The notes beneath the pieces were generated by a model that was not told the origin of the DNA, made no database searches, and saw only the letters and a program-made list of their open reading frames with translations. Positions 4,649 to 29,231 of a stretch of 45,712 nucleotides of DNA are shown one piece after another. The translations under genes were made by a program, and so were the position numbers. The stretch spans positions 854 to 46,565 of the forward strand of contig CAZUZI010000003.1 in NCBI GenBank assembly GCA_964625015.1, read 5' to 3'. Each line of letters begins with the position of its first letter. Positions within the stretch are counted from its first letter, which is position 1. This stretch comes from an uncultured Candidatus Saccharibacteria bacterium (lineage in GTDB: Bacteria > Patescibacteriota > Dojkabacteria > SC72).

Positions 4649-5404
4649 ATGAAGAGTGAGATAACAATAAAAGTTGATAATATTGATAAATCATTTAATG
4701 TTGCAGATGGTAAGGTAGATGTGTTAAAGAAAATATCCTTTGATATACTCGATTCTGAATTTGCCATCATATTTGGTCCCTCTGGATGTGGTAAATCTAC
4801 ACTGCTTCACACAATATTAGGATTAGAGCAACCAACTGGAGGTGCAATTACAGTACTTGGTAGAAATGTATATACTAACTATTCTGAAGATAATATGGCA
4901 GAATTTAGGATACATAATATTGGGATGGTATATCAGCAATCAAACTGGATAAAGGCAATTAATGTAGTTGAGAATGTTGCATTTCCTCTCGCTATACTTG
5001 GATATGAGCATACAGAGAGAATAAATAAGGCAAAGAAGCTATTAGATTCTCTTCATTTACTTCCATGGGCAGAATATCATCCATATGAGCTTTCAAGTGG
5101 ACAGCAACAGAAGGCTGCATTAGCTAGAGCATTGATAGGCAACCCTAGAATCATTATTGCTGATGAACCAACAGGTAACCTAGACTACGAAGCAGGAGAG
5201 GAGTTGATTTCTTTGTTTAAGGATCTTTCTACTACACAGGGTAAAACAATATTGATGGTTACACATGATTTAAACTATATTAAACATGCAAACAAAGCAA
5301 TTAGGATGCTTGATGGTGAAGTGGTAGAGATATTTGAACCTAAGAATGGAGAGAGTAGTCATGAAATACTTAAATACAAAACATCTGCAGATTATGTCAA
5401 ATAG
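4649..5404 (+). CDS. ABC transporter ATP-binding protein (MacB/LolD-like)
   Basis: Walker A is GPSGCGKSTLL, the signature is LSSGQQQKAALARAL, and Walker B is IIIADEPTGNLD. The H-loop reads VTHD. It starts 6 nt after the giant protein's stop. Confidence 0.9.
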   Translation: MKSEITIKVDNIDKSFNVADGKVDVLKKISFDILDSEFAIIFGPSGCGKSTLLHTILGLEQPTGGAITVLGRNVYTNYSEDNMAEFRIHNIGMVYQQSNWIKAINVVENVAFPLAILGYEHTERINKAKKLLDSLHLLPWAEYHPYELSSGQQQKAALARALIGNPRIIIADEPTGNLDYEAGEELISLFKDLSTTQGKTILMVTHDLNYIKHANKAIRMLDGEVVEIFEPKNGESSHEILKYKTSADYVK

Positions 5405-13219: not shown

Positions 13220-13921
13220 TTAAAGATTCTTGGCTTTTTCCTTAAAGATATTCAATATGTCCTGATAATCTGTATATGCCTTGAATGGTCTATATATATT
13301 TGTATCCCCAGCCCTATCAGCCATGTAGTACCCACTTACTATAAGAGATATACTCCACTTCCCAGTAGCTTGATGTACAACCTCAACATTTTGAATTCTC
13401 ATTATGTATGGAGAAACACTCTGCACTTCCTCTAAGAAGGATATAACATTTTCATAATCACCCATGTACGAAATTGGACCTGAGACTCCAGCTCCGCTAT
13501 TTTCAGACGGCAATAGTGTACCGCCCATATCTCCAGCGGACAACTCCCTTATTACCAACCCCTTTGCTCTCGCTAATGTATCAATATAGTAGATGAAATC
13601 AGATACTTTAAGGATCTTAGGTATAACACTTTTTGCCAGTACTACAGTATCATTTAGTTGATTCTCATCTAAAAGTGCAAGCTTATCATCTAAACCACTC
13701 AACTGTTCGATTTTGCTATCCGTTTCTTTAATTTCACTTTGATACCCTAATGCAGAGTTAATCATTGGTACAAAGACAGATATAGATAGAACTAATAGCA
13801 CAACTACTACAGCAATAGGGATTATAAGATCCCCAAAACTTAATCTTGTACTTCTTATCTTCTCATTTATTACTGCCAATTCTTTACTTGTTTTTTCATT
13901 TGTTCTACTTGCTAATGCCAT
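13220..13921 (-). CDS. PilO-like type IV pilus alignment protein
   Basis: It is the last gene after pilM and pilN. It is bitopic, with TM segment IIPIAVVVVLLVLSISVFVPMI, then a coiled-coil stretch and a globular domain. The call rests on topology and position only. Confidence 0.5.
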   Translation of the reverse strand: MALASRTNEKTSKELAVINEKIRSTRLSFGDLIIPIAVVVVLLVLSISVFVPMINSALGYQSEIKETDSKIEQLSGLDDKLALLDENQLNDTVVLAKSVIPKILKVSDFIYYIDTLARAKGLVIRELSAGDMGGTLLPSENSGAGVSGPISYMGDYENVISFLEEVQSVSPYIMRIQNVEVVHQATGKWSISLIVSGYYMADRAGDTNIYRPFKAYTDYQDILNIFKEKAKNL

Positions 13922-13923
13922 AT

Positions 13924-14583
13924 TTACTGATTAAAAAAATTTTTACCATTGAGTACACCCTCAAATGTGAAAGATACATTATTCTCCCCCTTACCAACAG
14001 ATTCTAAATTAATCTTGTTAATATTCGCATCCGTACCTAGAATATACCATAGCTTTGAAACCTGTTCTAAACTAGATGCATATCCAGAGTATGTAAATTC
14101 TAAATTTTCACTAATCATTACACCTCTCATTTCAATACTTCCCGCTTTAACACTAATACCACTTAAAAATTCAATAATTCTCTTATGAGAGAATGCTCCC
14201 TTTCTAACATTTGTATAAAGGACAGCTCTATCTACAATCTCTTCATTTGCAAGTAGGTTATCTATTTGCTGATTAATCTTGTTCTCTATTAATGCTAACT
14301 CTTTCTTCTTTGTATTTAATACCTGTTTAGAAATGATGTTAAAACCAACTACAGCGATAATAACCAAAACAAGAGCAATCAGACTTACAACAGAACCTAT
14401 GTTAACACCACTCTTTGCCTTCTCTACTACAATCTCTTCCTCCGACATCTCTGGCATAAGATTAAGACCTTCACTGATCTCTACATTCTCTTTTGTTTGG
14501 GGTTGAGTACTCGATACAACAGTTGAGTTCACTGTTTCCTTTGTAGCATCTTCTACTTTTTGTTGATTAATTCCATTATTCAT
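13924..14583 (-). CDS. PilN-like type IV pilus alignment protein
   Basis: It is bitopic (VVSLIALVLVIIAVVGFNII) with a coiled coil following. Its start overlaps the pilM stop by 8 nt. The call rests on topology and position. Confidence 0.5.
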   Translation of the reverse strand: MNNGINQQKVEDATKETVNSTVVSSTQPQTKENVEISEGLNLMPEMSEEEIVVEKAKSGVNIGSVVSLIALVLVIIAVVGFNIISKQVLNTKKKELALIENKINQQIDNLLANEEIVDRAVLYTNVRKGAFSHKRIIEFLSGISVKAGSIEMRGVMISENLEFTYSGYASSLEQVSKLWYILGTDANINKINLESVGKGENNVSFTFEGVLNGKNFFNQ

Positions 14584-15604
14584 CTTTTAATGCTAATCCT
14601 ATTGCAACTGAGTATGAAGGCCCACCCTTTGCAATAATATCTTTAAATCTTTCATTAATATTTATGCCAGCCCACGGGTTGGCAACGCTTGCCCTTACAC
14701 CAAGATATTTAGATACAAAGTCTCCCAGTCCTGGGAGTAGGGCACCATCACCATTTAACATATAGTCTACAGGAGATGCACTAGCAGTCTTATTTTTGTA
14801 GAACTCAACACCTCTTTGTACCTCTACAAGTATTGATTCTACAAGAGGGGATAGGGCTCCACTTATTTTACCTTCTAACACGTTTGGTACAACTCCATAG
14901 TTTCTCTTAAACTCTTCTGCTCGACTGTATTCAAAGCTAAATTTGTTAACTATTGCTTGTGTAAGAGAATCAGACCCTATTGCTATACTTTGTGAAAATA
15001 CCAAATATCCATCTGTCATAATACTCATATCTGTACTATTTGCTCCAAAATCAAGCATAACTAAATCCTTTATCTTTGTTGAACGATACATTGCCCTACC
15101 CATTGCAACTGATTCTGTCTCTATTGCAATAAGATCGAGATCTGCCAAATTAGCGATCTCCTGATATATAGATATAATTTTCTTAGGTGCGGCAACAAGT
15201 AATACCCTATATGCATTTTTTTCTTCATTGAACCCTATGATAACAAAACTCATATGTACATCATTTACAGACATTGGTATGTATTGTTTAGCTTCAAAGA
15301 AAACAGCATCTCTAAGCTCTTCTTTCTTAACTCCAGGAAATTCTAAAAATCTTGTAAATACAGAAAACTCTGGAAGTGCCATAACTACATTCCTATTCTT
15401 TATCTTTGAATCGTCGTATAGCTTCTTAAGTACATCTGCCAATTTCTTTTGATCGGCCTTTTCTTCACTGTTGATAACACCTTTTGGAGTAATATGACTA
15501 CCAAGATTGACAAGCTCAGGAGTACCTGTGATATTCTTCAGTTCTACAGCTTTAACGGAATGTGTTCCAAAATCTATTCCGACATGATCCGGCAGTTTAG
15601 CCAT
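14576..15604 (-). CDS. pilM: Type IV pilus assembly protein PilM (actin-like ATPase fold)
   Basis: It has the N-terminal GIDFGTHSVKAVEL phosphate-1 motif and LDFGANSTDM. Its size and position ahead of pilN/O fit the family. Confidence 0.85.
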   Translation of the reverse strand: MAKLPDHVGIDFGTHSVKAVELKNITGTPELVNLGSHITPKGVINSEEKADQKKLADVLKKLYDDSKIKNRNVVMALPEFSVFTRFLEFPGVKKEELRDAVFFEAKQYIPMSVNDVHMSFVIIGFNEEKNAYRVLLVAAPKKIISIYQEIANLADLDLIAIETESVAMGRAMYRSTKIKDLVMLDFGANSTDMSIMTDGYLVFSQSIAIGSDSLTQAIVNKFSFEYSRAEEFKRNYGVVPNVLEGKISGALSPLVESILVEVQRGVEFYKNKTASASPVDYMLNGDGALLPGLGDFVSKYLGVRASVANPWAGININERFKDIIAKGGPSYSVAIGLALKDE

Positions 15605-15648: not shown

Positions 15649-18600
15649 CTAATACGGTTTGTAACCTATTTCAGTTTGTGTTATATCAATCTGATTTCCA
15701 AATACAAGATTACTAAGTACTGCATACTTAGAGTGATAGTTAACTAGTAGAGCAGGATATATATTTCTGTCTACAAGCTTTAGGCTCCTACCCATATTCA
15801 ATCCACTATTAGAGTATATTCCTCCACCAATATACAATCCATCATATTTTCGATCTCCAAGTTCTGGATCAATTGTTACAGTACCATTCGCAATTATATA
15901 TGCATTTATACGATCATACTGTATTTGACCAGCTGTTGACCTTTGCATACCCTCATTAATTTCTACGTTACCGTTAACTACAAAGATACATGAATCCCTA
16001 TTAACATTGCTATTCAGTATTTCATTGTCTATTGTCAAATCTCCATTAACAAAGAAAAGTGCCTTACTATCACATATAAATGGTGTAGTAGAAGAACCTA
16101 CAGTCAGATTTTCACTGCGTGAGATACATACTGATGCAGAAGGATTGCATCCACCAGCAGTGGTTAAATTACCACTTATTCCTGATACTGGTAACATATC
16201 AATCTTACCCTCTATAGATCTATTACCGTATGCCTTAACCAATTCCGTATACCAATTAGAGATATTACTATTCATCATAAATGGCCTCATATGATATGAC
16301 TGTATCTGACTACTACTATTAAGTGCTGATGGTCCGACACCATTCACTCTGTCTCCAAAAAGTTCTGTTGTAACGTCTGCATATGATGGGTCTAGATTTT
16401 GTAAAACATCAACAGATTCCCATGGATCCCCTTCAATATCCTTTATTTCATAGTTCATTCCATCAGAAGAATATGTGAATCCTCCGTATGTTACAATCCA
16501 ATCTCCTAAAGAATAGGTTAATGCTGGACTAGTGACATTTCCAGCCATATCGAATACAGTTAAATATATGATCAAGCTTCCTCCGTTGTTCTCACCGATA
16601 TCAATCCTAACCCTATCCGAATATGTATTACTACCGACAGAGAGCTTCCTAAATGCATAACCAGTATTGAGATTTCCTATTCCAGTAGCAGGAGCTTCAA
16701 CTAATTCGTGAATGGAATTAACATCAAGAGTCCCACCAACGACATTGCTAATCATAATTGGGGATGGAGTAGGCATACCCATTGATGCATATATATTCCC
16801 TACAACAGCATATACCTCTTTGTCATCTGTTACATCCCATCTCAACTCTAATACAGTGTCATCTACTACAGTAACAGAGAGATTGTTGTTTACTGGACTC
16901 TGTTTATCTATAGTCCATTTACCAACTGGTGCCCACTGCCTTGCGTAAGTTTGTGCAGGAATAGGGGATGTTCTGTATCTAAGTTGACCCTCTTGCCAGT
17001 ATGAACCTATTTTAGAATTTATCTCCGTATTACTTGTATAGTTATCATACGGTGTAAAACTAAATACATCATTTCCCATTAGGTATATATTGTAAAGAAG
17101 TTCGGAAACAGGTTCAAAACCACTTGTATATGTAAAACTTAATTGGAATGGAAGTGTGACACTGTTCCCAGATCTGGTAATACTTGGTAAATTTCTGTTA
17201 CCGATTGTAACTCTAACCATTCTTACTCCACTTGGCCCAGCAATATCAAACCCGTTATTGGAATATACCGCTCTTACCCATTTCGGAATACCGCTTGCAG
17301 GATAACTTGGAACATATGCCACCCACGCGTTATTTTCCCATCTCATCATAAAGCCCCAGCTACCAGCATCTTGTACACTTGGAGGTTGAGATGGATTAAC
17401 ATTGGTATCAATCCATAATGGAGAAGTTATTTCTCCTGTTTGGATCGAATCTCTAAACCATACAGATACAGCCTCAATATCAGTTGCTCCATTAGAATCA
17501 GTATATGTAGCAGTCATGTGTAATGGATCATTTAAATTGTAATTAGACATCCTTATTCCACTCTGAGAATCACTTGAGAATCCATATTCATTCTGAGCAT
17601 CTGGTAGTATCTGTAAACTTGTTGTTGGTTGTGGACTTACCTGTTCATAGCATGCACCAAAATTAGTAGGACCCCCACATGGTACACCTTTTGTACATGA
17701 TCTAAAGTTACTCAATATCATGTTTGGATTAGTTGTTGTTGCCGTATTCGTCAAAGGAAGTGGACAATTTGGTAGAGCACAGTTATTACACCTATCAATG
17801 TAACATGTCCTTCCGCTTGATACTCCACAGTTGTTTGTACATGTTCTAGTTACTGATCCATATCCATAATTTGTTGAGCTATACAAAGGCTCACATACAG
17901 GTGGAGTACACGCTCTACAGTAACATGTATTTGTTTCAGTACCACACTGAGATGGGGAGTTGTTACATGTAAATGTTGTACTTCCATACCCTTGATTGGT
18001 TGTCTCGTACGTAGGTGCACACGCTGCAGGTGTACATAGTGGGGAACAGAGCCTCTGATTGAATACACAAGCTACTTCAGGAATGGAGAGTGGTCTTCCA
18101 TCTATAATGTAGTAACCATTAATTTGCAAATTCTTAGCTAAAGTACCACCATAATTAGCATCATTTACAAAAATACTGCTTGCAGGAAATGTAGTAGTTT
18201 CAGACGTTCTCGCAGTAGTATATGTATTTGTACGAAGAAGTTGATATGTTCCATTTGGACAACTGCCTTGAGTTGTAGCCCATCCAGCAATCTGGGTCGC
18301 AGAACATACAATATTGTTTGTTGTGTTAGGGTTATCAAGGTTATAGAAGGCGTAGAAGAAGGTATTTACATTAGTATTGGCTGTTGAAGTAACGGTAGAA
18401 GATTGACCAGGTTTTAGATATGTACTAGATGTGGTTGCACTACTGCATAGATTTTGACGTTGCCAGTAACAAGTTCTTGTATTTGTTGAAGGAGAACAGC
18501 CGTCCCCCCTTGAACATGATGTCGTAGTCTTGTATGCATCACCTGTATTTGGAGATTCGGCTGAACCAGTTGGACATGCTGGTGGAGTACAATCTGAACA

Positions 18601-18921
18601 ACTAGAACCACCACATGCGCTATCATCTTTTAAAGAACATCTAGAATATGGATTTCCATTCGACTGAAGGACTTTAACACAGAAGTTATTACCATAGTCA
18701 GTACAACATCTAAAGTAGTGCTGTGTCGTATAACAGTTACTAGAATCTCCACAATATCCTCCCCAAGATGGACTGGTAACATCTGACCAACCACATGAAT
18801 AGTTAGTTGCACATCCAGAAGGTTTCGCACATGTTTGAGCATTCACTTTATCAACAAAAACCAGACTCGATAGAGTGAACAGAAAAAACAAAACTAAATA
18901 TATTTTAAATACTCTCTTCAT
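15649..18921 (-). CDS. Large Sec-secreted cysteine-rich protein A (1090 aa), unknown family; paralog of 19969-22536
   Basis: The signal peptide is MKRVFKIYLVLFFLFTLSSLVFVDKVNA/QT. I count 38 Cys between residues 31 and 424. The core of about 650 aa aligns by eye with the 855-aa paralog. The C-terminus is ...TEIGYKPY. Confidence 0.85.
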   Translation of the reverse strand: MKRVFKIYLVLFFLFTLSSLVFVDKVNAQTCAKPSGCATNYSCGWSDVTSPSWGGYCGDSSNCYTTQHYFRCCTDYGNNFCVKVLQSNGNPYSRCSLKDDSACGGSSCSDCTPPACPTGSAESPNTGDAYKTTTSCSRGDGCSPSTNTRTCYWQRQNLCSSATTSSTYLKPGQSSTVTSTANTNVNTFFYAFYNLDNPNTTNNIVCSATQIAGWATTQGSCPNGTYQLLRTNTYTTARTSETTTFPASSIFVNDANYGGTLAKNLQINGYYIIDGRPLSIPEVACVFNQRLCSPLCTPAACAPTYETTNQGYGSTTFTCNNSPSQCGTETNTCYCRACTPPVCEPLYSSTNYGYGSVTRTCTNNCGVSSGRTCYIDRCNNCALPNCPLPLTNTATTTNPNMILSNFRSCTKGVPCGGPTNFGACYEQVSPQPTTSLQILPDAQNEYGFSSDSQSGIRMSNYNLNDPLHMTATYTDSNGATDIEAVSVWFRDSIQTGEITSPLWIDTNVNPSQPPSVQDAGSWGFMMRWENNAWVAYVPSYPASGIPKWVRAVYSNNGFDIAGPSGVRMVRVTIGNRNLPSITRSGNSVTLPFQLSFTYTSGFEPVSELLYNIYLMGNDVFSFTPYDNYTSNTEINSKIGSYWQEGQLRYRTSPIPAQTYARQWAPVGKWTIDKQSPVNNNLSVTVVDDTVLELRWDVTDDKEVYAVVGNIYASMGMPTPSPIMISNVVGGTLDVNSIHELVEAPATGIGNLNTGYAFRKLSVGSNTYSDRVRIDIGENNGGSLIIYLTVFDMAGNVTSPALTYSLGDWIVTYGGFTYSSDGMNYEIKDIEGDPWESVDVLQNLDPSYADVTTELFGDRVNGVGPSALNSSSQIQSYHMRPFMMNSNISNWYTELVKAYGNRSIEGKIDMLPVSGISGNLTTAGGCNPSASVCISRSENLTVGSSTTPFICDSKALFFVNGDLTIDNEILNSNVNRDSCIFVVNGNVEINEGMQRSTAGQIQYDRINAYIIANGTVTIDPELGDRKYDGLYIGGGIYSNSGLNMGRSLKLVDRNIYPALLVNYHSKYAVLSNLVFGNQIDITQTEIGYKPY

Positions 18922-19963
18922 TCTGTATCTCTAAGAAAAGTAACATATTCAAAAGGAAATCCTTTGTACAGTATACTGTAGCATTTGGTGTACAGTATGG
19001 TGTATTTTTACCAAACAGAAAACCCTGTTTTACAAAATCTTCTACATTTGCCAATGCTGCTAGACCTACCTCATTTTTAGAATCATATAGGTATGAGATA
19101 TTAATACTGTTTGTAACAAGATCAGACATATACAACTCCTCTTTAACTTCTGGCTTTAATATTGTTAGTACTTCACTGTCTGAGATTTCATATTCTGAAT
19201 CACAAAACTCATTTAGTATTAAATCCGAAAATAAAGAGAACGCATCTTCCTCTTTTGGAGTATTACAAATGGATTCTTTGATATAAATTTCTATAACATT
19301 TCCCTTATCTAAGAATTTTGCCTTTGAGAGAGCTAAATCTAATGAGATTCTTTTAGACAGTAGCTTGGTTCTTACATTAGACAATCTATCGTTATCACTA
19401 TTTGATTTTGATAAATATACATATTCAGAGAGTAGGGAAGAAACTTCTGTTAAAGAATTTCCTTTATCTACCGTATACTCTGTAATTAGATACTTAATAT
19501 CTTTTTGTAGTTCTTCCTTAAGTTGATCATATTTCAAATTTTGAACTATATATACTCCATTGTATAAAGTAATTCTCTTAAATTCATTATTACAAAAGAA
19601 GAGTAAACACTCCTGTTTATCTGTATATTCAAATGATATGTAAATTAATGATGGTGAAATAGGATTATCTCCAATTAAAATAGTAGGGGTGTATTCACTC
19701 TTTATCTTGTCAAGAGGAATTACTATGTTTTCTTTCTTTTGGTAGAGATTGAATGAAATAGTGTTATTAATATACTCAAGAGAATCGACCCAAACAAAAC
19801 CATATAGCTTTGAGTCTGATTCCGTTAAGAGATTTTTTAGTGAATCATAGTTTGTAATATTTTTTGTATCTTTCTTTATTAGAAATAAAACAACAAAGAT
19901 AAGGAGTAATACTATGATCAAACTCAAAATTGTGATAATAATTGTTTTTTTCTTTCTATTCAT
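18905..19963 (-). CDS. Single-pass membrane protein, cassette partner 2, unknown function
   Basis: The N-terminus is basic and followed by a TM segment (NRKKKTIIITILSLIIVLLLIFVVLFLI). The tracked start at 19969 is GTG, and an ATG lies at 19963. Its 3' end overlaps the start of protein A by 17 nt. Confidence 0.6.
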   Translation of the reverse strand: MNRKKKTIIITILSLIIVLLLIFVVLFLIKKDTKNITNYDSLKNLLTESDSKLYGFVWVDSLEYINNTISFNLYQKKENIVIPLDKIKSEYTPTILIGDNPISPSLIYISFEYTDKQECLLFFCNNEFKRITLYNGVYIVQNLKYDQLKEELQKDIKYLITEYTVDKGNSLTEVSSLLSEYVYLSKSNSDNDRLSNVRTKLLSKRISLDLALSKAKFLDKGNVIEIYIKESICNTPKEEDAFSLFSDLILNEFCDSEYEISDSEVLTILKPEVKEELYMSDLVTNSINISYLYDSKNEVGLAALANVEDFVKQGFLFGKNTPYCTPNATVYCTKDFLLNMLLFLEIQNEESI

Positions 19964-19968
19964 ATCCA

Positions 19969-22536
19969 CTAATACGGCTTAAATCCAACTTCTGTTTTTG
20001 CCATATCTACTGGACTACCAAGTAAAATACTGCTAAATAGTCCGTATTTTGAATGATGATCTATGACTAATGCTGGATATGTATTTCTATAATTTATACC
20101 TAAATATCTATTCATCAAAATACCATTCCTCGATTGTATGCCCCCATTTATATATAGACCATCGTATGAGATATCTGAGTTTATAGTTACACTACCATCA
20201 ACTAAGAAATATCCATTTATTTCATCATATCCCATTTGAGTAGGAGAGGATGTATTCAATCCGTTGTTAATGATTAAATTCCCAGCTACAACAAAGATAC
20301 AGGCATCTTTATTCCTATTACTATTTGCAATACCATTTTGTATTGTTAGATTACCTGATACAAAGAATATTCCTCTTCCATTACAATTGAAGATACTATT
20401 GTTGCCTACAGTTAAGTTACCATTTCTATCAAGGACATTTATTCCACCTGTTCCATAGTTAGAAAGACTACCAACTAGGGTAGGTGTATTAGGTATTCTC
20501 TGAACTCCACTTATACCAGATTCCCTTCTCTCGAATGTACTCTTTAAATCGATATAGAAGTTTACAGGTTTATATCCACGGAACGGATTTACTGCGTATG
20601 ATCTAAGTTCATTGGTTCTTACAAGCTTATTCAGAATTGTACTAGAAGTAGATGCATTACCTGCAAATAACTCACTAGTTAAATCTGCATGCTGTGGTGT
20701 TATCTTTCTAAGAAATACGTATGGATCCCACAATGCTGAATCTTCTACATTCTTTACTGTAAAATCAATACCATTTTCAGAGTATACTAATCCACCGTAT
20801 GTAATAAGCCAATCTTCAAGATCATATAGCCCATATGAAGAACCGTAATTACACGCTCTATCGAATGCTGTTGAATATACAACCAGACTTCCATCACGAT
20901 TGGATTGTGTATTTACACGAATAGATTGTGAGTCGGAAGTTGAGTTAATTCCAACAGACTTCGCTAAATACTGTGAATTAAGATTACCTATGAGATTTAT
21001 GTCTGCAGGAGGATTCAGTAATGTAAATGGTTGAGGAGAAATTGTTTTTGTACCTAAAGCTGTTAGTGTTGTTTCAGAAATTGTGTCTGTTTCTTCAGGA
21101 TTAACTCCTTCAGAAATGTATGCATTAACAACTACAGAGGATAACCCACCCTGATCGTTACTATCCCAGTTGAATCGGAGATATGTCGGATATTCAATTT
21201 GGGAAGAGAGATTCCCTACTGTAGGTGCAGTGAAATCGTAGGACCAATCTCTACTACTATCTGTCCATTTGTTATAGTACCTTATTTGTTCAGCAACATA
21301 TTTCGGTGATGTGGTTATTCCTGCAGGATAGTTATCATATGGTGTAAATCCAAATACATCATTTGCCATAACAAAGACATTATATGAACCGTCAAGTGGT
21401 CTATTTGCTTGAAGTATATTTCTGTAATCAAAACTAAAATCAAATACAACAGTATCCCCTTGTGGCGTAATACTGTTTACAACAACTTCTGCAATATTTT
21501 GACCAGTTGGTCCTTTTATCATAAATCGATTGCTACTATAACTAGCCTTAATCCATTTATTTTGAGTAGAGTCACTTAAAAGGCTTGGAATATAAGGGAC
21601 CCAGTTATTTCCCTCCTTATGCATCAAGAAACCGTAACTCGAATTTGTATATACTCTTCCTGTTTGCCCAGAATTACTGTCCAAATCAATGAAAGATGGA
21701 GTATTTGGTATATCTGTTGTTGTTTTTAACCATATGTATATCGCCTCTATATCATTAGCCCCATCTGCATCCCTATGTGTACTCCTCATTCTAATCGGAT
21801 TATTCATATCTAAACCAGTATAAGTAGAAGATACACATCCTCTGCTATTAGGAATTGAAGATGGCAGTACTTCAAGTGAAGATATTGGGTCTTCTGTACA
21901 ACCAGAATCTCCCATTACACAATCACGAGGTTCATAACAATCTCCATACTTAGTACCTGCACAGCTACCAGTTCTTTCACAAGATCTGTAGTTCGCAAGC
22001 TTAAATTCTTCAAGACCAGTATTTGTTAGTGGGGCAGGACAGTTACCGTAATCACAATCAACACATGGATCTGGAGCTGGACAGTAATATGATATACAGT
22101 TACTTCCATCAGCTCTTTTACATCCAGTATATGTACAAGAGCAACCAGCCTCTGCTAAACATTCCTGTGTTCCACACCCACAAGATAGATCACCTCCGCC
22201 TCCACTACCAACACAGCATCCTTGATATTGCAAATTTTCATCATTAAGACATTCTGTAGGAGAAGTATAGAAATAAATCCCACCATTACAGTTTGCATCA
22301 GTTCCAGAACAAGGATAATATCGTTCAATTCCAGTCAATTCAACACAATATGCCTGTGGAGAGCCATATCTCATCCATACGCCCTCTCCTCCATTAATAC
22401 CACCAAGTGGAGCAGAGCAATATGTACCAGAATCACATACATATGCTAATGCTTCAGTTTTAAAAAGGAATACATAACCAAAAATAGATATAAATACAAC
22501 TAATAGAAGTTTTACAATCTTTATTCCATTATTCAT
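19969..22536 (-). CDS. Large Sec-secreted cysteine-rich protein B (855 aa), unknown family; paralog of 15649-18921
   Basis: The signal peptide is ...FISIFGYVFLFKTEALA/YV. I count 24 Cys between residues 34 and 213. It shares blocks with A, for example YNVFVMANDVFGFTPYDNY and LEDWLITYGG. The C-terminus is ...TEVGFKPY. Confidence 0.85.
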   Translation of the reverse strand: MNNGIKIVKLLLVVFISIFGYVFLFKTEALAYVCDSGTYCSAPLGGINGGEGVWMRYGSPQAYCVELTGIERYYPCSGTDANCNGGIYFYTSPTECLNDENLQYQGCCVGSGGGGDLSCGCGTQECLAEAGCSCTYTGCKRADGSNCISYYCPAPDPCVDCDYGNCPAPLTNTGLEEFKLANYRSCERTGSCAGTKYGDCYEPRDCVMGDSGCTEDPISSLEVLPSSIPNSRGCVSSTYTGLDMNNPIRMRSTHRDADGANDIEAIYIWLKTTTDIPNTPSFIDLDSNSGQTGRVYTNSSYGFLMHKEGNNWVPYIPSLLSDSTQNKWIKASYSSNRFMIKGPTGQNIAEVVVNSITPQGDTVVFDFSFDYRNILQANRPLDGSYNVFVMANDVFGFTPYDNYPAGITTSPKYVAEQIRYYNKWTDSSRDWSYDFTAPTVGNLSSQIEYPTYLRFNWDSNDQGGLSSVVVNAYISEGVNPEETDTISETTLTALGTKTISPQPFTLLNPPADINLIGNLNSQYLAKSVGINSTSDSQSIRVNTQSNRDGSLVVYSTAFDRACNYGSSYGLYDLEDWLITYGGLVYSENGIDFTVKNVEDSALWDPYVFLRKITPQHADLTSELFAGNASTSSTILNKLVRTNELRSYAVNPFRGYKPVNFYIDLKSTFERRESGISGVQRIPNTPTLVGSLSNYGTGGINVLDRNGNLTVGNNSIFNCNGRGIFFVSGNLTIQNGIANSNRNKDACIFVVAGNLIINNGLNTSSPTQMGYDEINGYFLVDGSVTINSDISYDGLYINGGIQSRNGILMNRYLGINYRNTYPALVIDHHSKYGLFSSILLGSPVDMAKTEVGFKPY

Positions 22537-23525
22537 TTTTTTAAAGCAAGGTATAAAATAAAGGATTTAGATATATCACTAGAATTCTGTAAGCTGCTAT
22601 CGACATCCGATACAGTAGGGAATGTATCTTCCGTCATGAAAGGATACATACATATTGGATAATCTGTAACTTGGTCAGTTGAACAAATTGTCTCTAAATT
22701 GACATCTAGAGCAGGTGAAGATTCAGGAATATATATTAGTGAGAGATCTAAACTTAAATTAAGATCAAAGTCGGAATAGTTTGATGCATCAATATTTTTA
22801 ACACCACCATCTTTAACAGAGGGATCTTCTATATATACAAATTTAGTTGTACTTGTTATAAAATCTTTTTCTTTACCATTAAACATTGTAGTGAATCTTA
22901 TATTTAATCTATCACCATCATTGCTTATTTCCTTTATTCTTGCTTTTCTAAAATAGAGATAACCAATACCCTTTTTAGTTTCTGCTACAGAATATCCTTT
23001 ATCAATTGATTTCTCCGTCTCATATGTCATTAATCCACCTAGGTTATAATTGCCTGATAACTTTTTAAGAAGAGAACCAGTTTCATCATCAGTTAATCTG
23101 TTAATTGATATAACCGGAGTATTGAACTCATAGATATTAAACCTTTTCTTATCTGTAAATATTATCTCAACAGGGTATACACTCCCCTTTGCTTTCTCAA
23201 CATCCAACTCCTCTTTATCCCAATTTATAAACCCAATCTTGTTACATATTGGTCTCTCATACAATGTGTTTTTTAAGGATACAAAATACAGAGTAAAACA
23301 TTCTTGATTATTTTCTGTAGTTACCTTCTTAAAGAAGCCTCTACATATATATTTATCAGCAGTATCACTAGATTCCCTTTCACAGTTTTTGTAAAGGTTG
23401 TAATACGAAGTATCTAGTGATGTGCTCTTCTGATAGAAGAAATGGAGGACAACAACAGAGACTAGAAGTAGGAATACTATCACGATTAATGCAAATAATT
23501 TTCTTTTTCTTAGTACTATTTTCAA
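22533..23525 (-). CDS. Single-pass membrane protein, cassette partner 1, unknown function
   Basis: The N-terminus is LRKRKLFALIVIVFLLLVSVVVLHFF. The only available start is TTG at 23525. Its stop overlaps the ATG of protein B (ATGA at 22533-22536). Confidence 0.55.
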   Translation of the reverse strand: MKIVLRKRKLFALIVIVFLLLVSVVVLHFFYQKSTSLDTSYYNLYKNCERESSDTADKYICRGFFKKVTTENNQECFTLYFVSLKNTLYERPICNKIGFINWDKEELDVEKAKGSVYPVEIIFTDKKRFNIYEFNTPVISINRLTDDETGSLLKKLSGNYNLGGLMTYETEKSIDKGYSVAETKKGIGYLYFRKARIKEISNDGDRLNIRFTTMFNGKEKDFITSTTKFVYIEDPSVKDGGVKNIDASNYSDFDLNLSLDLSLIYIPESSPALDVNLETICSTDQVTDYPICMYPFMTEDTFPTVSDVDSSLQNSSDISKSFILYLALKK

Positions 23526-23551: not shown

Positions 23552-23938
23552 TTATCCCAAGAATTTATCTAATTCTCTTAACAAACCAGAATAATCTAAA
23601 TCTGCTTTAACTAGATATGATGATGCTCCCATACCAAATGCTTCCTTAATAACAGATTCACTAGTCATATTTGTAAGAATTATTATTGGCATAGAACCAT
23701 ACTTCTCTTCATTGTTCTTAATTGTCTTCAACACCTCTAAACCGTCAACACCGGGCATCATAAGATCGAGTAATACAAGATCTATTTGCCCTAAACCCTT
23801 TGAAAGCATATCTAATCCATGATATCCATCAGGTGCCTTCAGTGGAGTAAATCCTGCCGCCTGAACTATCTCTGCATAGGAGTCTAGCAAAGGTGATTCG
23901 TCTTCTACGATTAGTATCCTTTTCATTTGTGCAGGCAT
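23552..23938 (-). CDS. Stand-alone CheY-like response-regulator receiver domain (PilH/PilG-like by context)
   Basis: ILIVEDE is the acidic pocket and DLVLLDLMMPGVDG is the phospho-Asp context. IIILTN and YLVKA are also present. It is 128 aa with no output domain. AGGA lies 9 nt upstream of the ATG. Confidence 0.85.
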   Translation of the reverse strand: MPAQMKRILIVEDESPLLDSYAEIVQAAGFTPLKAPDGYHGLDMLSKGLGQIDLVLLDLMMPGVDGLEVLKTIKNNEEKYGSMPIIILTNMTSESVIKEAFGMGASSYLVKADLDYSGLLRELDKFLG

Positions 23939-23955: not shown

Positions 23956-24930
23956 TTAATTTTGAGTAGGCTCTAATGTTCCAATATTGTATATTGTATA
24001 GTCAAAAATAGACGAATATCCAACACTATCTGTACCTGGTACCATAATTTGCTTCTCCCTATATGAACCGTAACAGTTTACGGCCGCATTCACTTTCATA
24101 AACGAAAATTTGTATGTAGAACACTCTCCTACAGATGTAGAGACACCAAGAGTAAGATTGAGTGGTATTATTCTTATTTGTTGAAGAGTAGTGCCAGCAG
24201 GCCCAGTTTCTCCCAAATCTATATTCAGAGTATTTCCAGCATTAAGTCCATTAAAGGATGTAGAAGGTGAGGCAATACCACTCAAATCATCACTACTGCA
24301 GGATGTGGAATTAGGAGTAAAACAGTATGCTGTAATATGTTCAGGTGAATACTCTGCAATATTTCCATCTGTATCACTGTAAATTTTCTTTACAGCAAAG
24401 AGAGTGGGTGCATTATCTCTTGCTTCAAACTGGAATGATACACTACATGGACCAGCTCCACTGTATGTATTTCCATCAAGATTTAAAACTCTTGCAGAAC
24501 CGACTCTCACATCAACAAAATCCGAAGATGTTGCGGGAGATATTGTTAGCTTCAATGAAGAACCCTTAGAGGTATCTTCACACCATTGCTGGCCAGTAGT
24601 CGCACTTAGTATTGTTGAATCTATACTGTGTTCATTTAAGAAAGCAATAACCTCATTAATTCCATTAAATTCAAATTTCTTTTCTCCCTCAATAGCATCA
24701 AGTTCTAATGATATATTGTGTAATATCTGAAAATCAGTTCTAACAAAGAGATCCAAAAGACTATCTGCCTGTTCCGAAGCCATTATTGAATCCTTTGTAT
24801 TGATGGCAGATTCTCTGTTTTTTAATGTCCTTGAATATAGAGACGCTCCTAATACTGTTGCAACAACAAGTATGACCATTACAATAGCAATAGCTTGTCC
24901 TGAATACATACTTACTTTGTTATATTTCAT
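23956..24930 (-). CDS. PilX/GspK-like pseudopilin candidate (N-terminal hydrophobic helix without Glu5)
   Basis: The N-terminus is MKYNKVSMYSGQAIAIVMVILVVATVLGASLY. It is the last gene in the minor-pilin row. There is no G/FxxxE motif, so the call is contextual. Confidence 0.45.
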   Translation of the reverse strand: MKYNKVSMYSGQAIAIVMVILVVATVLGASLYSRTLKNRESAINTKDSIMASEQADSLLDLFVRTDFQILHNISLELDAIEGEKKFEFNGINEVIAFLNEHSIDSTILSATTGQQWCEDTSKGSSLKLTISPATSSDFVDVRVGSARVLNLDGNTYSGAGPCSVSFQFEARDNAPTLFAVKKIYSDTDGNIAEYSPEHITAYCFTPNSTSCSSDDLSGIASPSTSFNGLNAGNTLNIDLGETGPAGTTLQQIRIIPLNLTLGVSTSVGECSTYKFSFMKVNAAVNCYGSYREKQIMVPGTDSVGYSSIFDYTIYNIGTLEPTQN

Positions 24931-24950: not shown

Positions 24951-25649
24951 CTAATACCAAGTCAAACCTTGTGATGAAACTGTAGACTGTCTTGTAATTT
25001 GCCTTTTGATTGAAAGTCCAAAGCTTTCTGGCCAATCCAAAGGTTCGACAGTAGCATCTATTATGAACATGTTATCAGCATCATCACCAATAACTAGGTA
25101 TTCAACAGAGAAATCATCAACAGTAACGGACATATTCTGCAAAACAGATACATATGCATCTGCCCTATTAGGATCGAAGCAATCAGCGTGATTTTCAAGA
25201 CCATACATCGTTGTTTTTAAAAGATATCCTCTCTCTTGGTTAACAGTATTTCTAAAATATCCAATACATGTCCATACATTGTATCCATATGACCTTACAT
25301 GTATTTCATTCGCTGGAGTTCCAACTAGAATAGTGGGATTACTGTACACCTCTCCAACACCAGCTGGGATATCTTCTAAAGAGAGTGTCTGATCATTGAA
25401 ATATCTAACTGCACCAGATTGATACATAGTTATATCAGAGATATTACTTCCAGACAGAGACCTATTCATTAGCTCCATTATGAAGTTAATATCATTTCTT
25501 GCTTGATTCTTACTATTTGAAACAGAGGAAACCTTTATCAATGTAGTTAATGTAGTGGCAACAAGAACCATAATGATACCTAGGATGCCTAATGTTAAGA
25601 GCATTTCTACTAAACTAAATCCATTATATCTTCTCTTTTTCTTTATCAT
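24951..25649 (-). CDS. Minor (pseudo)pilin with a class III signal peptide
   Basis: MIKKKRRYNG/FSLVEMLLTLGILGIIMVL has Gly at -1, Phe at +1 and Glu at +5. There is an ATGA overlap with the upstream gene. Confidence 0.7.
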   Translation of the reverse strand: MIKKKRRYNGFSLVEMLLTLGILGIIMVLVATTLTTLIKVSSVSNSKNQARNDINFIMELMNRSLSGSNISDITMYQSGAVRYFNDQTLSLEDIPAGVGEVYSNPTILVGTPANEIHVRSYGYNVWTCIGYFRNTVNQERGYLLKTTMYGLENHADCFDPNRADAYVSVLQNMSVTVDDFSVEYLVIGDDADNMFIIDATVEPLDWPESFGLSIKRQITRQSTVSSQGLTWY

Positions 25650-26188
25650 AGGTTTATTATTGCAAAGTATTGATAATCTTTAATATCATTAGATGTACTA
25701 AGCAAACCAGAGACTCTGTTAAATCCAATTATCACCTTTATCAGTAACTTGTTAGTAGGAGGATCTCCAGGTCTTCTACTTACAATACACACTACTCGAA
25801 AATAGTCTCCTTCATCATCGCTTACACCATCATTTACAATAGCCTCTGATATGTATGCATTTCTATCAGAAAGTACTGTCGTAGGATCAATATTATATTC
25901 ACCACTTTCATCTCGGTTAAGAGAATAGCAGAGATTTTCACCAAGTGTATCAAATATATTGTTTCCATCTTCTTGTAACCTTTCCCTGTTTGCAATGTTT
26001 TGTACAATTACAGCTGCAGATCTAGCATATTGAGCCTGAGCATCTTCAACATCTAATTTAACTAAATCTCTCATTGCTGCAGTTGCAATATTTATTAAAA
26101 CAGTTGCAACAATACCAGAGACCATAATTGCAATAAGGGATTCTACAAATCCTAAACTTTTATATTTTTTTCTAAAAAGTTTCCTCAT
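25646..26188 (-). CDS. Minor (pseudo)pilin-like protein with an atypical prepilin motif register
   Basis: The N-terminus is MRKLFRKKYKSLGFVESLIAIMVSGIVATVL. It has a basic leader and a hydrophobic helix, but Glu is at +3 relative to the Gly. Confidence 0.55.
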   Translation of the reverse strand: MRKLFRKKYKSLGFVESLIAIMVSGIVATVLINIATAAMRDLVKLDVEDAQAQYARSAAVIVQNIANRERLQEDGNNIFDTLGENLCYSLNRDESGEYNIDPTTVLSDRNAYISEAIVNDGVSDDEGDYFRVVCIVSRRPGDPPTNKLLIKVIIGFNRVSGLLSTSNDIKDYQYFAIINL

Positions 26189-26193
26189 AGTTA

Positions 26194-27198
26194 CTAATAC
26201 AATTGACTACACTGAACTGTAATACATTCAAGACCTAGTTTTGGATCTGATACACAACAATTGGGATCGGTAACGATTGGATCTACTACCGGATCAACAA
26301 CAGGATCTACCACTGGATCAACAACAGGGTCTACTACCGGATCAACATTAGGATCAGTAACTGGTCCGCCAAGGAGATCTTTACCAGAATTTGCTTTATA
26401 TGCTGCGACAATATTTCTAAATATACCTAAAACTTCAGGATCATCCCAGACTGTATGTTTTACGCTACCAGATAAAGGAGAAACACTTATTGTATCTGCC
26501 ATATTACCTCTGTTTCTAAAAATGATAATTCCAAGAGTATTAAATAGGTTCGTTTCACTATCTCTGATTAACGCACCGCTAGCATCATAGTTAATAGGCC
26601 AGCCCTCATTTGTATAAAGGAAAGCCTTACCTGTTACAGCCTCGAAAACAACAAATGAAATATTTGAACTTAGTACTACATCAAAACCCATGTTAATCTT
26701 TCCATCTTCCATACCAGAAAGATTGGTCATATATTTAATTCTGGGTTCTGAATCACAGAAACCACCAGATTCATAATCTTCTTCACTTACAGGTAGAATT
26801 GCGTTATTACCGTGATTATACGTGAGGTCTGAATCTAAATTACCGATATTAATATCAGGATTATACGCAATTATTTCAGTCCTAGTACGAATATTCCCAT
26901 ATTCAGCAAAAGGAGAACACCATTTAAAAAATTTGTAATTACCATTTGAAATATCTCTAAAATCTATCCCTATTCCATATATCCAACCTTCTCCTGGTTT
27001 CCTTTGTAAAAGCATTGCTTTCTGTTGAGCAACACGTATATCCTGCTTAATACTCTCTATATTCTGCCTAACCAAAACAGTATCTCTCATACCACCGAAA
27101 GAGTAGGCTCCTAATGTACCTAGAACAATGATAATCATTAGGACAACTAATACCTCAGCTAGGGTATATCCTAGATATCGGGCAGAATTGTTTGGCAT
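26194..27198 (-). CDS. Large minor pilin with a C-terminal (VDPV)n repeat and a Cys-rich tail
   Basis: MPNNSARYLG/YTLAEVLVVLMIIIVLG has Glu at +5. The C-terminus reads DPNVDPVVDPVVDPVVDPVVDPVVDPIVTDPNCCVSDPKLGLECITVQC. Confidence 0.7.
   Translation of the reverse strand: MPNNSARYLGYTLAEVLVVLMIIIVLGTLGAYSFGGMRDTVLVRQNIESIKQDIRVAQQKAMLLQRKPGEGWIYGIGIDFRDISNGNYKFFKWCSPFAEYGNIRTRTEIIAYNPDINIGNLDSDLTYNHGNNAILPVSEEDYESGGFCDSEPRIKYMTNLSGMEDGKINMGFDVVLSSNISFVVFEAVTGKAFLYTNEGWPINYDASGALIRDSETNLFNTLGIIIFRNRGNMADTISVSPLSGSVKHTVWDDPEVLGIFRNIVAAYKANSGKDLLGGPVTDPNVDPVVDPVVDPVVDPVVDPVVDPIVTDPNCCVSDPKLGLECITVQCSQLY
26264..26362 (-). repeat. In-frame 12-nt tandem repeat (about 7 units plus degenerate flanks) encoding (VDPV)n
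   Basis: On the plus strand the units ggatctactacc and ggatcaacaaca alternate from 26279 to 26362. A degenerate unit lies at 26264-26278. Confidence 0.85.
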
Positions 27199-27245
27199 TC
27201 AACTTTAGAATTAAATAATATATTTAAAGATTAACAAAAAAACAG

Positions 27246-27815
27246 TTAATTGTTAATTGCAAATCCACGATCTAAATACCAATCAGAAACATCAAAGCCA
27301 CGGATAATATTTACATTCTCCGTATCACCGCTCTGTACAGAACCAGATTCCTTTACCTCAAGAGGGTTATCAACTGGTTCATGACCAATTCCATCACCAG
27401 TACAGTAATGCCCTTGACCACTTTCATCGTCTATACCACCAAGAGAGACACACACAATGACGAATTGGCCAGAGACAGGGTCTACGTGATAGTAATAGCT
27501 TGCATCTGTACCGCCATCAAATGCTGTATCTTCAATATATGGCTTCAATACAGCATTACTACCTTTGTATCCTAGTGCTTCTGCAAAGAATTGTTCATCT
27601 ATACATGTACTACAGCTACCAATACTAGGATAGACTCCATTCTCAAGCTTGTACTTAACAAGTGCTGTAAACAATTTATCAGCCATATCCTGATGGTATA
27701 CCCTGTCTGCACGAGCAATAGCATATCTTCCCACACCAATTCCAATGGCAATAAGTATAAGGAGTATTCCCATTACGATTAATACTTCTATCAATGTAAA
27801 TCCTTTATACTTCAT
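27246..27815 (-). CDS. Type IV pilin (paralog 2)
   Basis: The N-terminus is MKYKG/FTLIEVLIVMGILLILIAIGI. It shares blocks with the 28656 pilin, for example CVSLGG...GHYCTG. There is an ATGA overlap with the pilD stop. Confidence 0.8.
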   Translation of the reverse strand: MKYKGFTLIEVLIVMGILLILIAIGIGVGRYAIARADRVYHQDMADKLFTALVKYKLENGVYPSIGSCSTCIDEQFFAEALGYKGSNAVLKPYIEDTAFDGGTDASYYYHVDPVSGQFVIVCVSLGGIDDESGQGHYCTGDGIGHEPVDNPLEVKESGSVQSGDTENVNIIRGFDVSDWYLDRGFAINN

Positions 27816-28576
27816 ATATAAAATATCTTTTCCAAAATTAGTACTAACTGTTGGTTAAATATTAGCATTAATGAGATAGAAATATACATGAGTGGTACTA
27901 GAGGTAATGAGCTTTTTATTGTAGCCTTTTTCAAAAATATAAGTACAAAAGAGTAGAGGAGAGATATAAAAAGAAATGTGTATATAAATGATATGTACAT
28001 TGGTATTGAGAGAAGAAAACCCATTCCAAAAAGTATAAGTAAGTCGCCAATACCAAACGTCTTCTTCATTACTTTGCTCAATATAAGTACAAAGATTGTA
28101 AATACAATAGATACAACGAGTGAATTAGGATATGTAAAGCTGGTATATATAGAATATAAAGTGAAAATGAGAAAAGAGGATAACAAATATACATGAACTA
28201 TTACTTTTGGGACTCCTTTATATATCCTATCAAAATATGACATTACGAATAGAAATACTACTAATACATACATAGTAGAGGATAGTTCAAAATAATAAAT
28301 GCTACCAAGAGATACGCCAAGTAGAAACTCAGTAACTGGATAATAGAATGGTACTTTATATCCACATTTAGAACATTTTCCTTTGAATATAAAATAGGAG
28401 AGTACAGGTATCAGTTCATACCACAATAGTTCCTTTTTACACTTTTCACAATGAGATCCTTTTATAAAAATATCAGGATATTTATATTCATTATCTATTC
28501 TATACAACAAAGCATTGAGGAAACTGGCAAGAATTAACCCAACAATGAATATTACGATAGATATATATAAATGCAT
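27812..28576 (-). CDS. pilD: Prepilin peptidase (A24 family, PilD-like)
   Basis: It is polytopic, with an N-terminal Cys pair motif (CEKCKK...CSKCGY) in the first cytoplasmic loop. It has a GIGD motif (FGIGDLLILFG) consistent with the second catalytic Asp box. It lies between the two pilin genes. Confidence 0.8.
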   Translation of the reverse strand: MHLYISIVIFIVGLILASFLNALLYRIDNEYKYPDIFIKGSHCEKCKKELLWYELIPVLSYFIFKGKCSKCGYKVPFYYPVTEFLLGVSLGSIYYFELSSTMYVLVVFLFVMSYFDRIYKGVPKVIVHVYLLSSFLIFTLYSIYTSFTYPNSLVVSIVFTIFVLILSKVMKKTFGIGDLLILFGMGFLLSIPMYISFIYTFLFISLLYSFVLIFLKKATIKSSLPLVPLMYISISLMLIFNQQLVLILEKIFYI

Positions 28577-28655: not shown

Positions 28656-29231
28656 TTAATCAAGAGCACTATCTACAAATGCTTCACCATCCCAGTCATT
28701 AATTACAGACCAACCACCAGTTACACCATTTGGATATCCATTAGGTGTTGCAGGAGGTTCAACATTCTTTCCAGTAATTGTTGCCCCTGGACCACCATCA
28801 GCACCAAATGCATTTCCTGTACAGTAGTGGCCTCTTTCTGTTGCATCAACAATACCACCCAATGATACACAGATTAAAACTTCTTGCAGCATATTAGGCT
28901 CTACGTAATAGAAGAATGTTGCTTCTGTACCACCTGTAAACTCTCCCTCAGATAGATATTTGTACAGTAGGCCATTCTCAGCGATTGCAGCAGCTAAAGG
29001 TACACCTCCTGCTACTCCCGTTAACTCTGTAGCACTAGGGAAATTCCTGTTATCTGTATAATATGCCTGTAATGCTGTATATATCTGATCTGCAGCATTC
29101 TGATGTGCTACATCATTAGCTCTATTGATTGCAAATCTACCTGCAGTAATACCTACAGCCATAAGGATGATCAAGATACCCATGACGATAAGCATCTCGA
29201 CAAGTGTAAATGCCGAATATTTTCTATCCAT
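28656..29231 (-). CDS. Type IV pilin (paralog 1; best major-pilin candidate)
   Basis: MDRKYSA/FTLVEMLIVMGILIILMAVGI has Ala rather than Gly at -1 and Glu at +5. It lies directly after pilC and has its own terminator. Confidence 0.8.
   Translation of the reverse strand: MDRKYSAFTLVEMLIVMGILIILMAVGITAGRFAINRANDVAHQNAADQIYTALQAYYTDNRNFPSATELTGVAGGVPLAAAIAENGLLYKYLSEGEFTGGTEATFFYYVEPNMLQEVLICVSLGGIVDATERGHYCTGNAFGADGGPGATITGKNVEPPATPNGYPNGVTGGWSVINDWDGEAFVDSALD

Follow-up and report, generated by a model that had tools for sequence, protein, structure and literature searches.

Large proteins encoded with membrane anchors in type IV pilus operons of Dojkabacteria are candidate pilus-associated adhesins

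Introduction

Adhesive proteins that are not themselves pilins are placed on type IV pili (T4P) in two described ways, those of PilY1/PilC and of CofJ/TcpF. PilY1 and PilC, associated with the tip of type IVa pili in Pseudomonas, Neisseria and Myxococcus, are large Sec-dependent non-pilins encoded beside minor pilins (PMC8833165). A genome has several such paralogs, each of them paired with minor pilins of its own (three clusters in Myxococcus), and the proteins join a variable N-terminal adhesive part, with a von Willebrand factor A (vWA) domain in PilY1, to a conserved C-terminal part that is presumed to dock on minor pilins. CofJ (ETEC, CFA/III) and TcpF (V. cholerae, TCP), which belong to type IVb pilus systems and are both operon-encoded and Sec-secreted, hook the tip minor pilins CofB and TcpB via a flexible terminal peptide (PMC6048534, PMC9565799). 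In modular pilins, found in cells that lack an outer membrane, the adhesive module is instead fused to the pilin helix, as in Streptococcus sanguinis PilB (vWA) and PilC (lectin) (PMC8179133), and the Saccharibacteria proteins PilX1 and PilX2 are candidate tip adhesins, PilX2 with a role in host binding (PMC11623550). Here we analyzed a window of 45,712 nucleotides (nt) from contig CAZUZI010000003.1 (positions 854 to 46,565) of a Dojkabacteria genome assembly, GCA_964625015.1, in which two pairs of genes, each for a membrane-anchored partner and a very large protein, are embedded in a T4P operon.

A life attached to other microbes is assumed for Patescibacteria, also called the candidate phyla radiation (CPR), and T4P are their most conserved surface machine. 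To our knowledge, host-recognition molecules are almost unknown in these bacteria outside one cultivated Saccharibacteria system. The large proteins described here have a hypervariable exposed end and a conserved end by which they presumably dock; each genome encodes several of them, and gene order links them with the pilus. The family offers concrete candidates for host-recognition determinants in Dojkabacteria. We propose, with a probability of roughly 60%, that these proteins are pilus-associated modular adhesins, that is, Sec-exported, non-pilin and interchangeable surface proteins that work together with the T4P.

Two translationally coupled gene pairs in a pilus operon

Between the gene for a stand-alone receiver (23552-23938; Response_reg, E = 3e-20) and pilM (14576-15604; PilM_2, E = 3e-51), four open reading frames (ORFs) follow one another on the minus strand: partner A (330 aa, 22533-23525), large protein A (855 aa, 19969-22536), partner B (354 aa from a GTG, or 352 aa from an ATG two codons in; 18905-19969) and large protein B (1090 aa, 15649-18921). 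All were taken from the ORF list, large A being further identified by family membership and large B by its paralogy to large A. A first-pass annotation of this DNA had placed two such pairs between receiver and pilM, and its ORFs, sizes, overlaps and positions were all found as described. Partner A and large A share an ATGA (4-nt overlap), and the ATG of large B sits 17 nt inside partner B. The stop codon of large A overlaps the GTG start of partner B by 1 nt, or lies 5 nt from the start if the ATG is used. Judged by these junctions, anchor and large protein are translationally coupled in both pairs.

The two large proteins are paralogs, with 35% identity over 742 columns (BLASTP, E = 6e-128). 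The alignment contains all four blocks that had been quoted as matching, covers about 700-715 residues rather than the 640 first estimated, and reaches back to include the last module of a Cys-rich N-terminal region. Orthologs of the large proteins in other genomes are 50-63% identical (50-62% for large B), much closer than the two window copies are to each other, and the duplication is therefore ancient. A recent tandem duplication was considered and rejected on this comparison. The description of the locus as a tandemly duplicated cassette accordingly holds for the large genes alone; it does not extend to the partners, which are unlinked in sequence (see below).

An undescribed family of large proteins

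None of the four proteins has a match in Pfam (none at E ≤ 0.1 for the large proteins), NCBIfam, PHROGs or PADLOC, and PDB sequence searches with large A and with a profile of the C-terminal module returned no match. These negatives, together with Foldseek matches that are generic or weak, agree with the first-pass statements that the large proteins of the window contain no PilY1 or other named domain, and they give no confident link, by hidden Markov model (HMM) or by structure, to an unrelated family. In addition, no earlier description of the family was found in literature searches. A word-indexed search yielded 28 relatives, all unnamed or "hypothetical", the labeled ones being Candidatus Dojkabacteria, and an exhaustive profile search yielded 567 clusters at 50% identity with E ≤ 1e-3, 214 of them with E ≤ 1e-30. 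Labeled members are Candidatus Dojkabacteria in every clade sampled, and the source metagenomes of the relatives include activated sludge, an anaerobic membrane bioreactor and biofilm. Judged by these sequence searches, the large proteins form a previously undescribed, Dojkabacteria-restricted family.

When the C-terminal 300 residues were clustered, five main clades were obtained. Clade 17, to which both window proteins belong (54 members), and clade 16 (20 members) are found in the pilus operon, and clades 12 (14 members; L061) and 18 (30 members; L062) occupy the same operon slot. The members of clade 14 (25) come from loci away from the pilus operon, hereafter satellites (L033, L034, L043-L056 and L060).

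The family is tied to the pilus by gene order

Gene context was tallied for 60 non-duplicate loci, which were counted without de-replication by genome, so that the tallies exceed the number of independent observations. The family lies inside a T4P operon in 33 loci and in a satellite with a PilX-like gene directly 3' of the large gene in 15; 11 contigs are too short for the context to be judged, and one long locus (L032) has no pilus gene. Homologs are thus not found mostly outside pilus loci. Where a genome scan gave a usable flank, the family was positioned between receiver and pilM in every case (27 of 27), and the number of large genes per pilus operon ranges from one to three. The large proteins are almost always encoded together with pilus genes.

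In the clade-14 satellites, a small anchor gene and a large-protein gene are followed, 3-30 nt further 3', by a gene for a protein of 316-360 aa, the whole lying among housekeeping genes. These 3' proteins are paralogs of the PilX-like protein of the main operon (phmmer E = 1e-16 to 1e-28 for complete proteins and 2e-10 for one truncated by a contig end), and all share the N-terminal pattern K-Y-x-[GA]-Q-A-L-A-I-x-M-V-V-L-V-V. The satellites constitute a second, independent link of the family to a pilin-like protein.

The PilX-like protein of the window (324 aa, 23956-24930, minus strand) closes the minor-pilin block. Its N-terminus resembles a pilin helix without Glu5 (…YSG followed by QAIAIVMVILVV), and it is the only pilin-like protein of the operon without any glutamate near the mature N-terminus; of the others, three have Glu5 and one, the 180-aa minor pilin mp3_180, has a glutamate at +3. 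The match to PilX_N is below threshold (E = 0.029, 14.8 bits, against a gathering cut-off of 25.5), and a profile of the PilX-like family found no match among PDB sequences, so that the name denotes resemblance and position only. In GspK-type pseudopilins, absence of Glu5 is characteristic of the subunit that is assembled first and ends up at the very tip. By analogy, the PilX-like protein may be the tip-most subunit of the Dojkabacteria pilus.

The receiver gene lies between the PilX-like gene and the cassette in almost all of the Dojkabacteria pilus operons that were inspected. The exception is L038, in which, as in L037, the order is pilin, anchor, a 608-aa protein, large protein, PilD, minor pilins and PilX-like; the 608-aa protein has no N-terminal transmembrane (TM) segment. 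The position of the cassette is therefore not fixed in all lineages.

Most large proteins are accompanied by a membrane anchor that appears to change rapidly

Partners A and B both start with a Lys/Arg-rich N-terminus that is followed by one TM segment, giving an N-in single-pass topology (residues 2-34 in partner A), and each has six Cys, those of partner A in the ectodomain. As the first-pass annotation had observed, this common topology goes with no significant similarity in sequence (best E = 0.13). The largest partner cluster, c0, has 18 members, partner A among them, and is represented in satellites as well as at both the first and the second position in the operon. Partner B stands alone in sequence: BLAST found no similarity even to the partners of large B orthologs (L001 12305-13333 and L003 16426-17460), and a link given by jackhmmer is weak and probably driven by the TM segment.

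Across the family, 52 upstream neighbors of large genes were collected, of which 48 are N-in single-pass proteins of 180-608 aa. The anchor stop codon usually adjoins the start of the large gene or lies inside it (gap of -3 to -19 nt), in satellites as well. In L002 and L007, a second large gene directly follows the first and has no anchor gene of its own directly upstream. These results demonstrate that the two-gene anchor/large unit is real and general in the family, and the proposal of a dedicated membrane partner for each large protein holds up family-wide. Clustering split the partners into 12 or more groups with no phmmer link between them; hhalign gave marginal links only (best 62% probability, c0 versus c2), and a single common family could not be shown by phmmer, hhalign or jackhmmer. 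On sequence, anchors appear to evolve or to be replaced far faster than the large proteins that they accompany.

Large proteins combine a variable Cys-rich N-terminus with a conserved C-terminal module

An AlphaFold2 model of large A (mean predicted local distance difference test score, pLDDT, 73.6), with the C-terminal module also modeled separately, was combined with conservation analysis. The N-termini look Sec-type when read from the sequence, with a hydrophobic segment over residues 1-31 of large A (22444-22536) and A-x-A cleavage sites in both proteins (…FKTEALA before YVC in large A, …VNA before QT in large B). No N_methyl match was found, and the prepilin motif G[FYWM][ST][LIM][IVLM]E is absent from the first 60 residues of all 150 full-length family members, in line with the earlier view that these proteins have ordinary signal peptides and are not modular pilins. 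Furthermore, LPXTG does not occur in the last 60 residues of any member, nor does any member contain a second or C-terminal TM segment.

The signal peptide of large A is followed by a hypervariable Cys-rich region (residues 32-214; 21895-22443), delimited by Cys count, conservation and low pLDDT. It corresponds to residues 29-425 of large B (17647-18837), which were delimited by Cys count and module search. The counts of 38 and 24 Cys given in the first-pass annotation are correct, with the genes interchanged: large B has 42 Cys in total, 38 of them up to residue 424, and large A has 28, 24 of them up to residue 213. These regions are built from a module of 37-50 aa with the pattern C-T-P-x-x-C … [ST]-C … C … C-Y, which occurs once in large A (about residues 152-201; 156-205 in the conservation analysis) and four times in large B (37-45 aa each; residues 111-152, 292-334, 338-374 and 381-425). 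A regular expression detected it in 83 of 159 family members. Residues 23-155 of large A were modeled at low pLDDT, and 56% of the segment 32-155 is unaligned between family members.

Residues 215-575 of large A (20812-21894) form all-beta immunoglobulin (Ig)-like sandwiches, a putative stalk assigned from the AlphaFold2 model (pLDDT mostly 85-96) and Foldseek. Residues 576-655 (20572-20811) are conserved and unmodeled (pLDDT < 50), with the invariant pattern W-x-I-T-Y-G-G-x-V-Y-S…. They lead into a helix and a right-handed beta-solenoid predicted by AlphaFold2 (residues 656-840; 20017-20571), with pLDDT mostly 83-98 up to about residue 810 and about 73-76 over the last 30 or so residues. The protein ends in a tail, …DMAKTEVGFKPY (residues 841-855; 19972-20016), which was delimited by conservation and has a pLDDT below 50. 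The conserved C-terminal module of large B, comprising an unmodeled linker, the beta-solenoid and the tail …TEIGYKPY, spans residues 806-1090 (15652-16506). Conservation climbs from the N- to the C-terminus, with a mean identity of 55% in the solenoid and a mean pairwise identity of 65% in the tail, whose consensus K-x-E-V-G-F-K-P-Y is the best conserved stretch and is present in at least 156 of 181 members. The tail is a candidate docking peptide. Since the partners comprise at least 12 unrelated families, it is unlikely to be the contact for them.

More distant relatives keep the core and add modules to it: VWA in P0107 and P0117, Laminin_G_3/Pentaxin in P0147 and P0089, and DUF2341 in P0134. 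In P0044, an insertion of about 650 aa with Gly_rich_2 is placed in a solenoid loop of the C-terminal module, after the "…ITI…" strand and before "DGLYINGG". A distal end that varies and may be decorated with lectin or vWA modules, joined to a conserved proximal end, fits a modular adhesin docked by its C-terminus.

Insertions that appear similar to that of P0044, the one given by the Pfam scan, were seen in P0047, P0053 and P0061 by reading the sequences. P0053 and P0044 are encoded in the same locus (L029 5100-14578).

Comparison with described adhesins and pilus-tip proteins

In way of working, the closest described proteins are PilY1 and PilC, which the large proteins resemble in being sizeable Sec-type non-pilins encoded beside minor pilins, in having several paralogs per genome, and in uniting a variable N-terminal part, with vWA in some relatives, with a conserved C-terminal part. 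However, PilY1 has a seven-bladed beta-propeller with a calcium site, whereas the predicted fold here is a beta-solenoid with no Neisseria_PilC/PilY1 Pfam match. Since the defining propeller is missing, the large proteins are not members of the PilY1 family. They also differ in lacking any sequence relationship to PilY1/PilC, in their Cys-rich N-terminal modules, and in having a dedicated membrane-anchored partner in a cell that has neither outer membrane nor periplasm. Identities as PilY1-type propeller, polysaccharide lyase and phage tail fiber were each rejected, with no significant Foldseek match for the C-terminal module.

With CofJ and TcpF the large proteins share their coding in the operon and Sec-type export, and the conserved, unmodeled tail would be the counterpart of the docking peptide. 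In CofJ and TcpF, that peptide binds the trimer of tip minor pilins and is located at the N-terminus, the opposite end from the tail considered here. Furthermore, the proteins described here are 3-4 times larger and modular, show no homology to either of them (no match in PDB sequence searches), and have a membrane-anchored partner, which CofJ and TcpF lack. Modular pilins likewise put adhesive modules on the pilus of outer-membrane-less cells; in contrast to these and to PilX1/PilX2, the large protein is a separate Sec-exported polypeptide, and the PilX-like protein is encoded by a gene of its own. MSCRAMM and antigen I/II (AgI/II) adhesins of monoderm surfaces, the best Foldseek matches of the central region, have tandem Ig-like beta-sandwiches to which those predicted here bear a generic resemblance, but they carry an LPXTG/sortase signal, whereas the family members end in …GFKPY and have no sequence similarity to them. 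Proteins of the DUF3494 ice-binding type have a right-handed beta-solenoid flanked by a helix, as is predicted here, and give the best C-terminal fold matches, which are not significant; no Pfam Ice_binding match was obtained. ComZ of Thermus, a tip pilin with an inserted beta-solenoid, is an example of such a solenoid located at the tip of a pilus; ComZ differs in being itself a pilin, and its Foldseek match is not significant (E = 3.2).

Proposed role of the large proteins and competing explanations

The suggestion made in the first-pass annotation, that these are pilus-associated adhesins, gains support from gene context and from the relatives with vWA and laminin G (LamG)/pentaxin domains, with the pilus association itself read from context. 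We further outline a specific route, a monoderm-specific way of arming a T4P with separate, exchangeable adhesins, which we offer tentatively and consider somewhat doubtful as a whole: a hypervariable single-pass tether would hold the adhesin until its conserved tail …EVGFKPY hands it to a Glu5-less tip pilin, and the operon and satellite copies would set the range of hosts that can be grasped. In the main interpretation, the cassette would be co-transcribed with the pilus genes, and Sec would export the large protein, whose Cys-rich N-terminal modules could become disulfide-bonded outside the cell; CPR genomes are enriched in MdbA/VKOR-type oxidoreductases (PMC6744442). The single-pass partner would then retain the large protein at the outer face of the membrane, a tether being needed because a cell without outer membrane or periplasm would lose a soluble protein by drift. 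From there, the beta-solenoid and the flexible tail could dock on the priming/tip complex of minor pilins. The likeliest docking site would be the PilX-like protein, because the two genes adjoin in satellites. PilB-driven extension would show the hypervariable, lectin-like or vWA N-terminal end to the surface of the host cell, and PilT-driven retraction, as generally known for T4P, would draw the cells together. Several paralogous cassettes, one to three in the operon and more in satellites, may widen or switch receptor specificity.

Several results weigh against this interpretation. The pilus association, tip location and adhesion proposed here derive from gene context and domain content, and the context tallies are, as stated, larger than the number of independent observations. 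In L032 (8179-17681), an anchor (605 aa) and a large protein (1153 aa) lie back-to-back beside type IV secretion system (T4SS)-like genes (VirB4/DUF87-TraG, TraC-like and PrgI-like), with no pilus gene within 10 kb of the pair. PilX_N is matched at E ≤ 0.05 by only 4 of 27 PilX-like family members (best E = 0.0036), and in the main operon one PilX-like gene serves one to three large proteins, so that the pairing is not 1:1. The large proteins of the window themselves have no recognizable lectin or vWA domain. The structural matches are also weak or generic. With the whole large A model, Foldseek against PDB and BFVD gave generic tandem Ig/fibronectin type III (Fn3) matches only; the sandwiches resemble those of ClfB, SdrD, AgI/II and the integrin leg with E down to 1.8e-7, at template modeling (TM) scores of only 0.10-0.17 by query and 0.2-0.37 by target, and because of these low scores the similarity is a generic fold resemblance. 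The C-terminal module has no match at E < 1e-3. Its ice-binding-protein matches are not significant (E = 0.06-0.4), including the top one, DUF3494 protein 5b5h (E = 0.063, TM 0.32/0.40, root-mean-square deviation 3.2 Å over 154 columns).

The large protein and its anchor could instead form an adhesin complex of the cell body that is merely co-regulated with the pilus and makes tight contact after retraction. Such a complex would account for a translationally coupled single-pass anchor at nearly every copy, for an Ig-like stalk as in cell-wall adhesins, and for the pair in L032 away from pilus genes. For Saccharibacteria, a model of attachment in two steps, by the pilus first and then by surface adhesins at close range, has been put forward (PMC11623550). 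It leaves unexplained, however, why 15 satellites have their own PilX-like paralog directly 3', and it does not account for a flexible tail as the most conserved element beside hypervariable partners. We therefore regard it as rather unlikely, while taking it seriously. An improbable alternative is that the proteins are a non-adhesive structural or priming part of the CPR pilus machine, either a starter of assembly or a guide for the fiber through the wall or S-layer. The fixed position between minor pilins/receiver and pilMNO would suit such a part, as would the priming of assembly by PilY1 in other bacteria (PMC8833165) and the lack of PilQ or any other envelope-spanning component in the operon (Pfam scans; PMC6744442). 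Yet a machine part would not be expected to vary between one and three copies, to have a hypervariable N-terminus and gained vWA, LamG and Gly-rich modules, or to occur in satellites away from the machine. The T4P machine also occurs throughout the CPR, in contrast to a family that is limited to Dojkabacteria.

Release from the cell, rather than retention, would be the fate of a secreted effector or enzyme, such as a beta-helix protein that degrades polysaccharides and leaves through the pilus system like TcpF or substrates of the type II secretion system (T2SS). A Sec signal within a type IV filament operon, a C-terminal beta-solenoid, which is a fold common in polysaccharide lyases, and the pilus-dependent secretion of TcpF (PMC9565799) are compatible with this idea. 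We consider it very improbable: neither HMM searches nor Foldseek gave a significant match to a lyase or hydrolase (pectate lyases appear only at E > 2), a monoderm cell needs no pilus for releasing a Sec substrate, and the dedicated membrane anchor speaks for retention.

If the large proteins are indeed pilus-associated modular adhesins, they would represent a third, structurally unrelated way of placing a non-pilin adhesin on a T4P, after PilY1/PilC and CofJ/TcpF, and the first such system with a dedicated membrane tether, which would be sensible for a cell without periplasm. The family is lineage-restricted and currently without experimental access. Neither the large family and its Cys-rich module nor the partner and PilX-like families have been annotated so far, and all of them could become profile models for the annotation of CPR genomes.

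The surrounding operon and other features of the window

On the minus strand, a single long string of T4P genes extends from about 35.0 kb down to 13.2 kb. Pfam matches identify PilB (32098-33903), a PilT-like ATPase (30514-32076), PilC (29269-30510), the major pilin (28656-29231) and the prepilin peptidase PilD (27812-28576). They are followed by four minor (pseudo)pilins of 189, 334, 180 and 232 aa (24951-27815), with prepilin-type N-termini and N_methyl and ComGD/GspH-type matches, and then by the PilX-like, receiver and cassette genes. Beyond pilM lie a PilN-like and a PilO-like gene (13220-14583), which have no family match and are labeled by position and single-TM topology. Since PilB and PilT are both encoded, the pilus is likely retractile. 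Synteny with metagenome-assembled genomes (MAGs) of Dojkabacteria is complete over the window, including the flanking KH, S16, RNase III, NusB, L32 and ClpB genes, and points to a Dojkabacteria-type CPR bacterium as the source. No convincing internal terminator was found in the string (5 terminator-like sites versus 3.9 expected by chance), and a promoter scan gave a count at or below that expected from shuffled sequence.

The PilT-like ATPase has 520 aa, of which only residues 171-447 match the T2SSE domain, leaving an N-terminal extension of about 170 aa. A gene of the FemAB family (peptidoglycan interpeptide bridge; 33979-35034, minus strand) lies directly 5' of pilB. Two antisense ORFs on the plus strand, of 95 aa within large B (16007-16294) and of 108 aa within the PilX-like gene (24404-24730), are probably spurious.

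Elsewhere in the window, a plus-strand gene (437-4642) encodes a protein of 1401 aa with Fn3, Pur_ac_phosph_N and Big_13-type domains, and 3' of it lie genes for an ABC ATPase (4649-5404, plus strand) and an FtsX/MacB-like permease (5334-6938, plus strand); these genes may encode a further surface protein and a dedicated exporter for it. A sortase gene (41992-42618, plus strand) overlaps a gene for a VanY D-Ala-D-Ala carboxypeptidase (42599-43432, plus strand). Since no member of the large-protein family has LPXTG, the substrate of this sortase lies elsewhere. GyrA (936 aa; 38208-41018, plus strand) matches the DNA_topoisoIV domain in two stretches and may contain an insertion in its catalytic domain.

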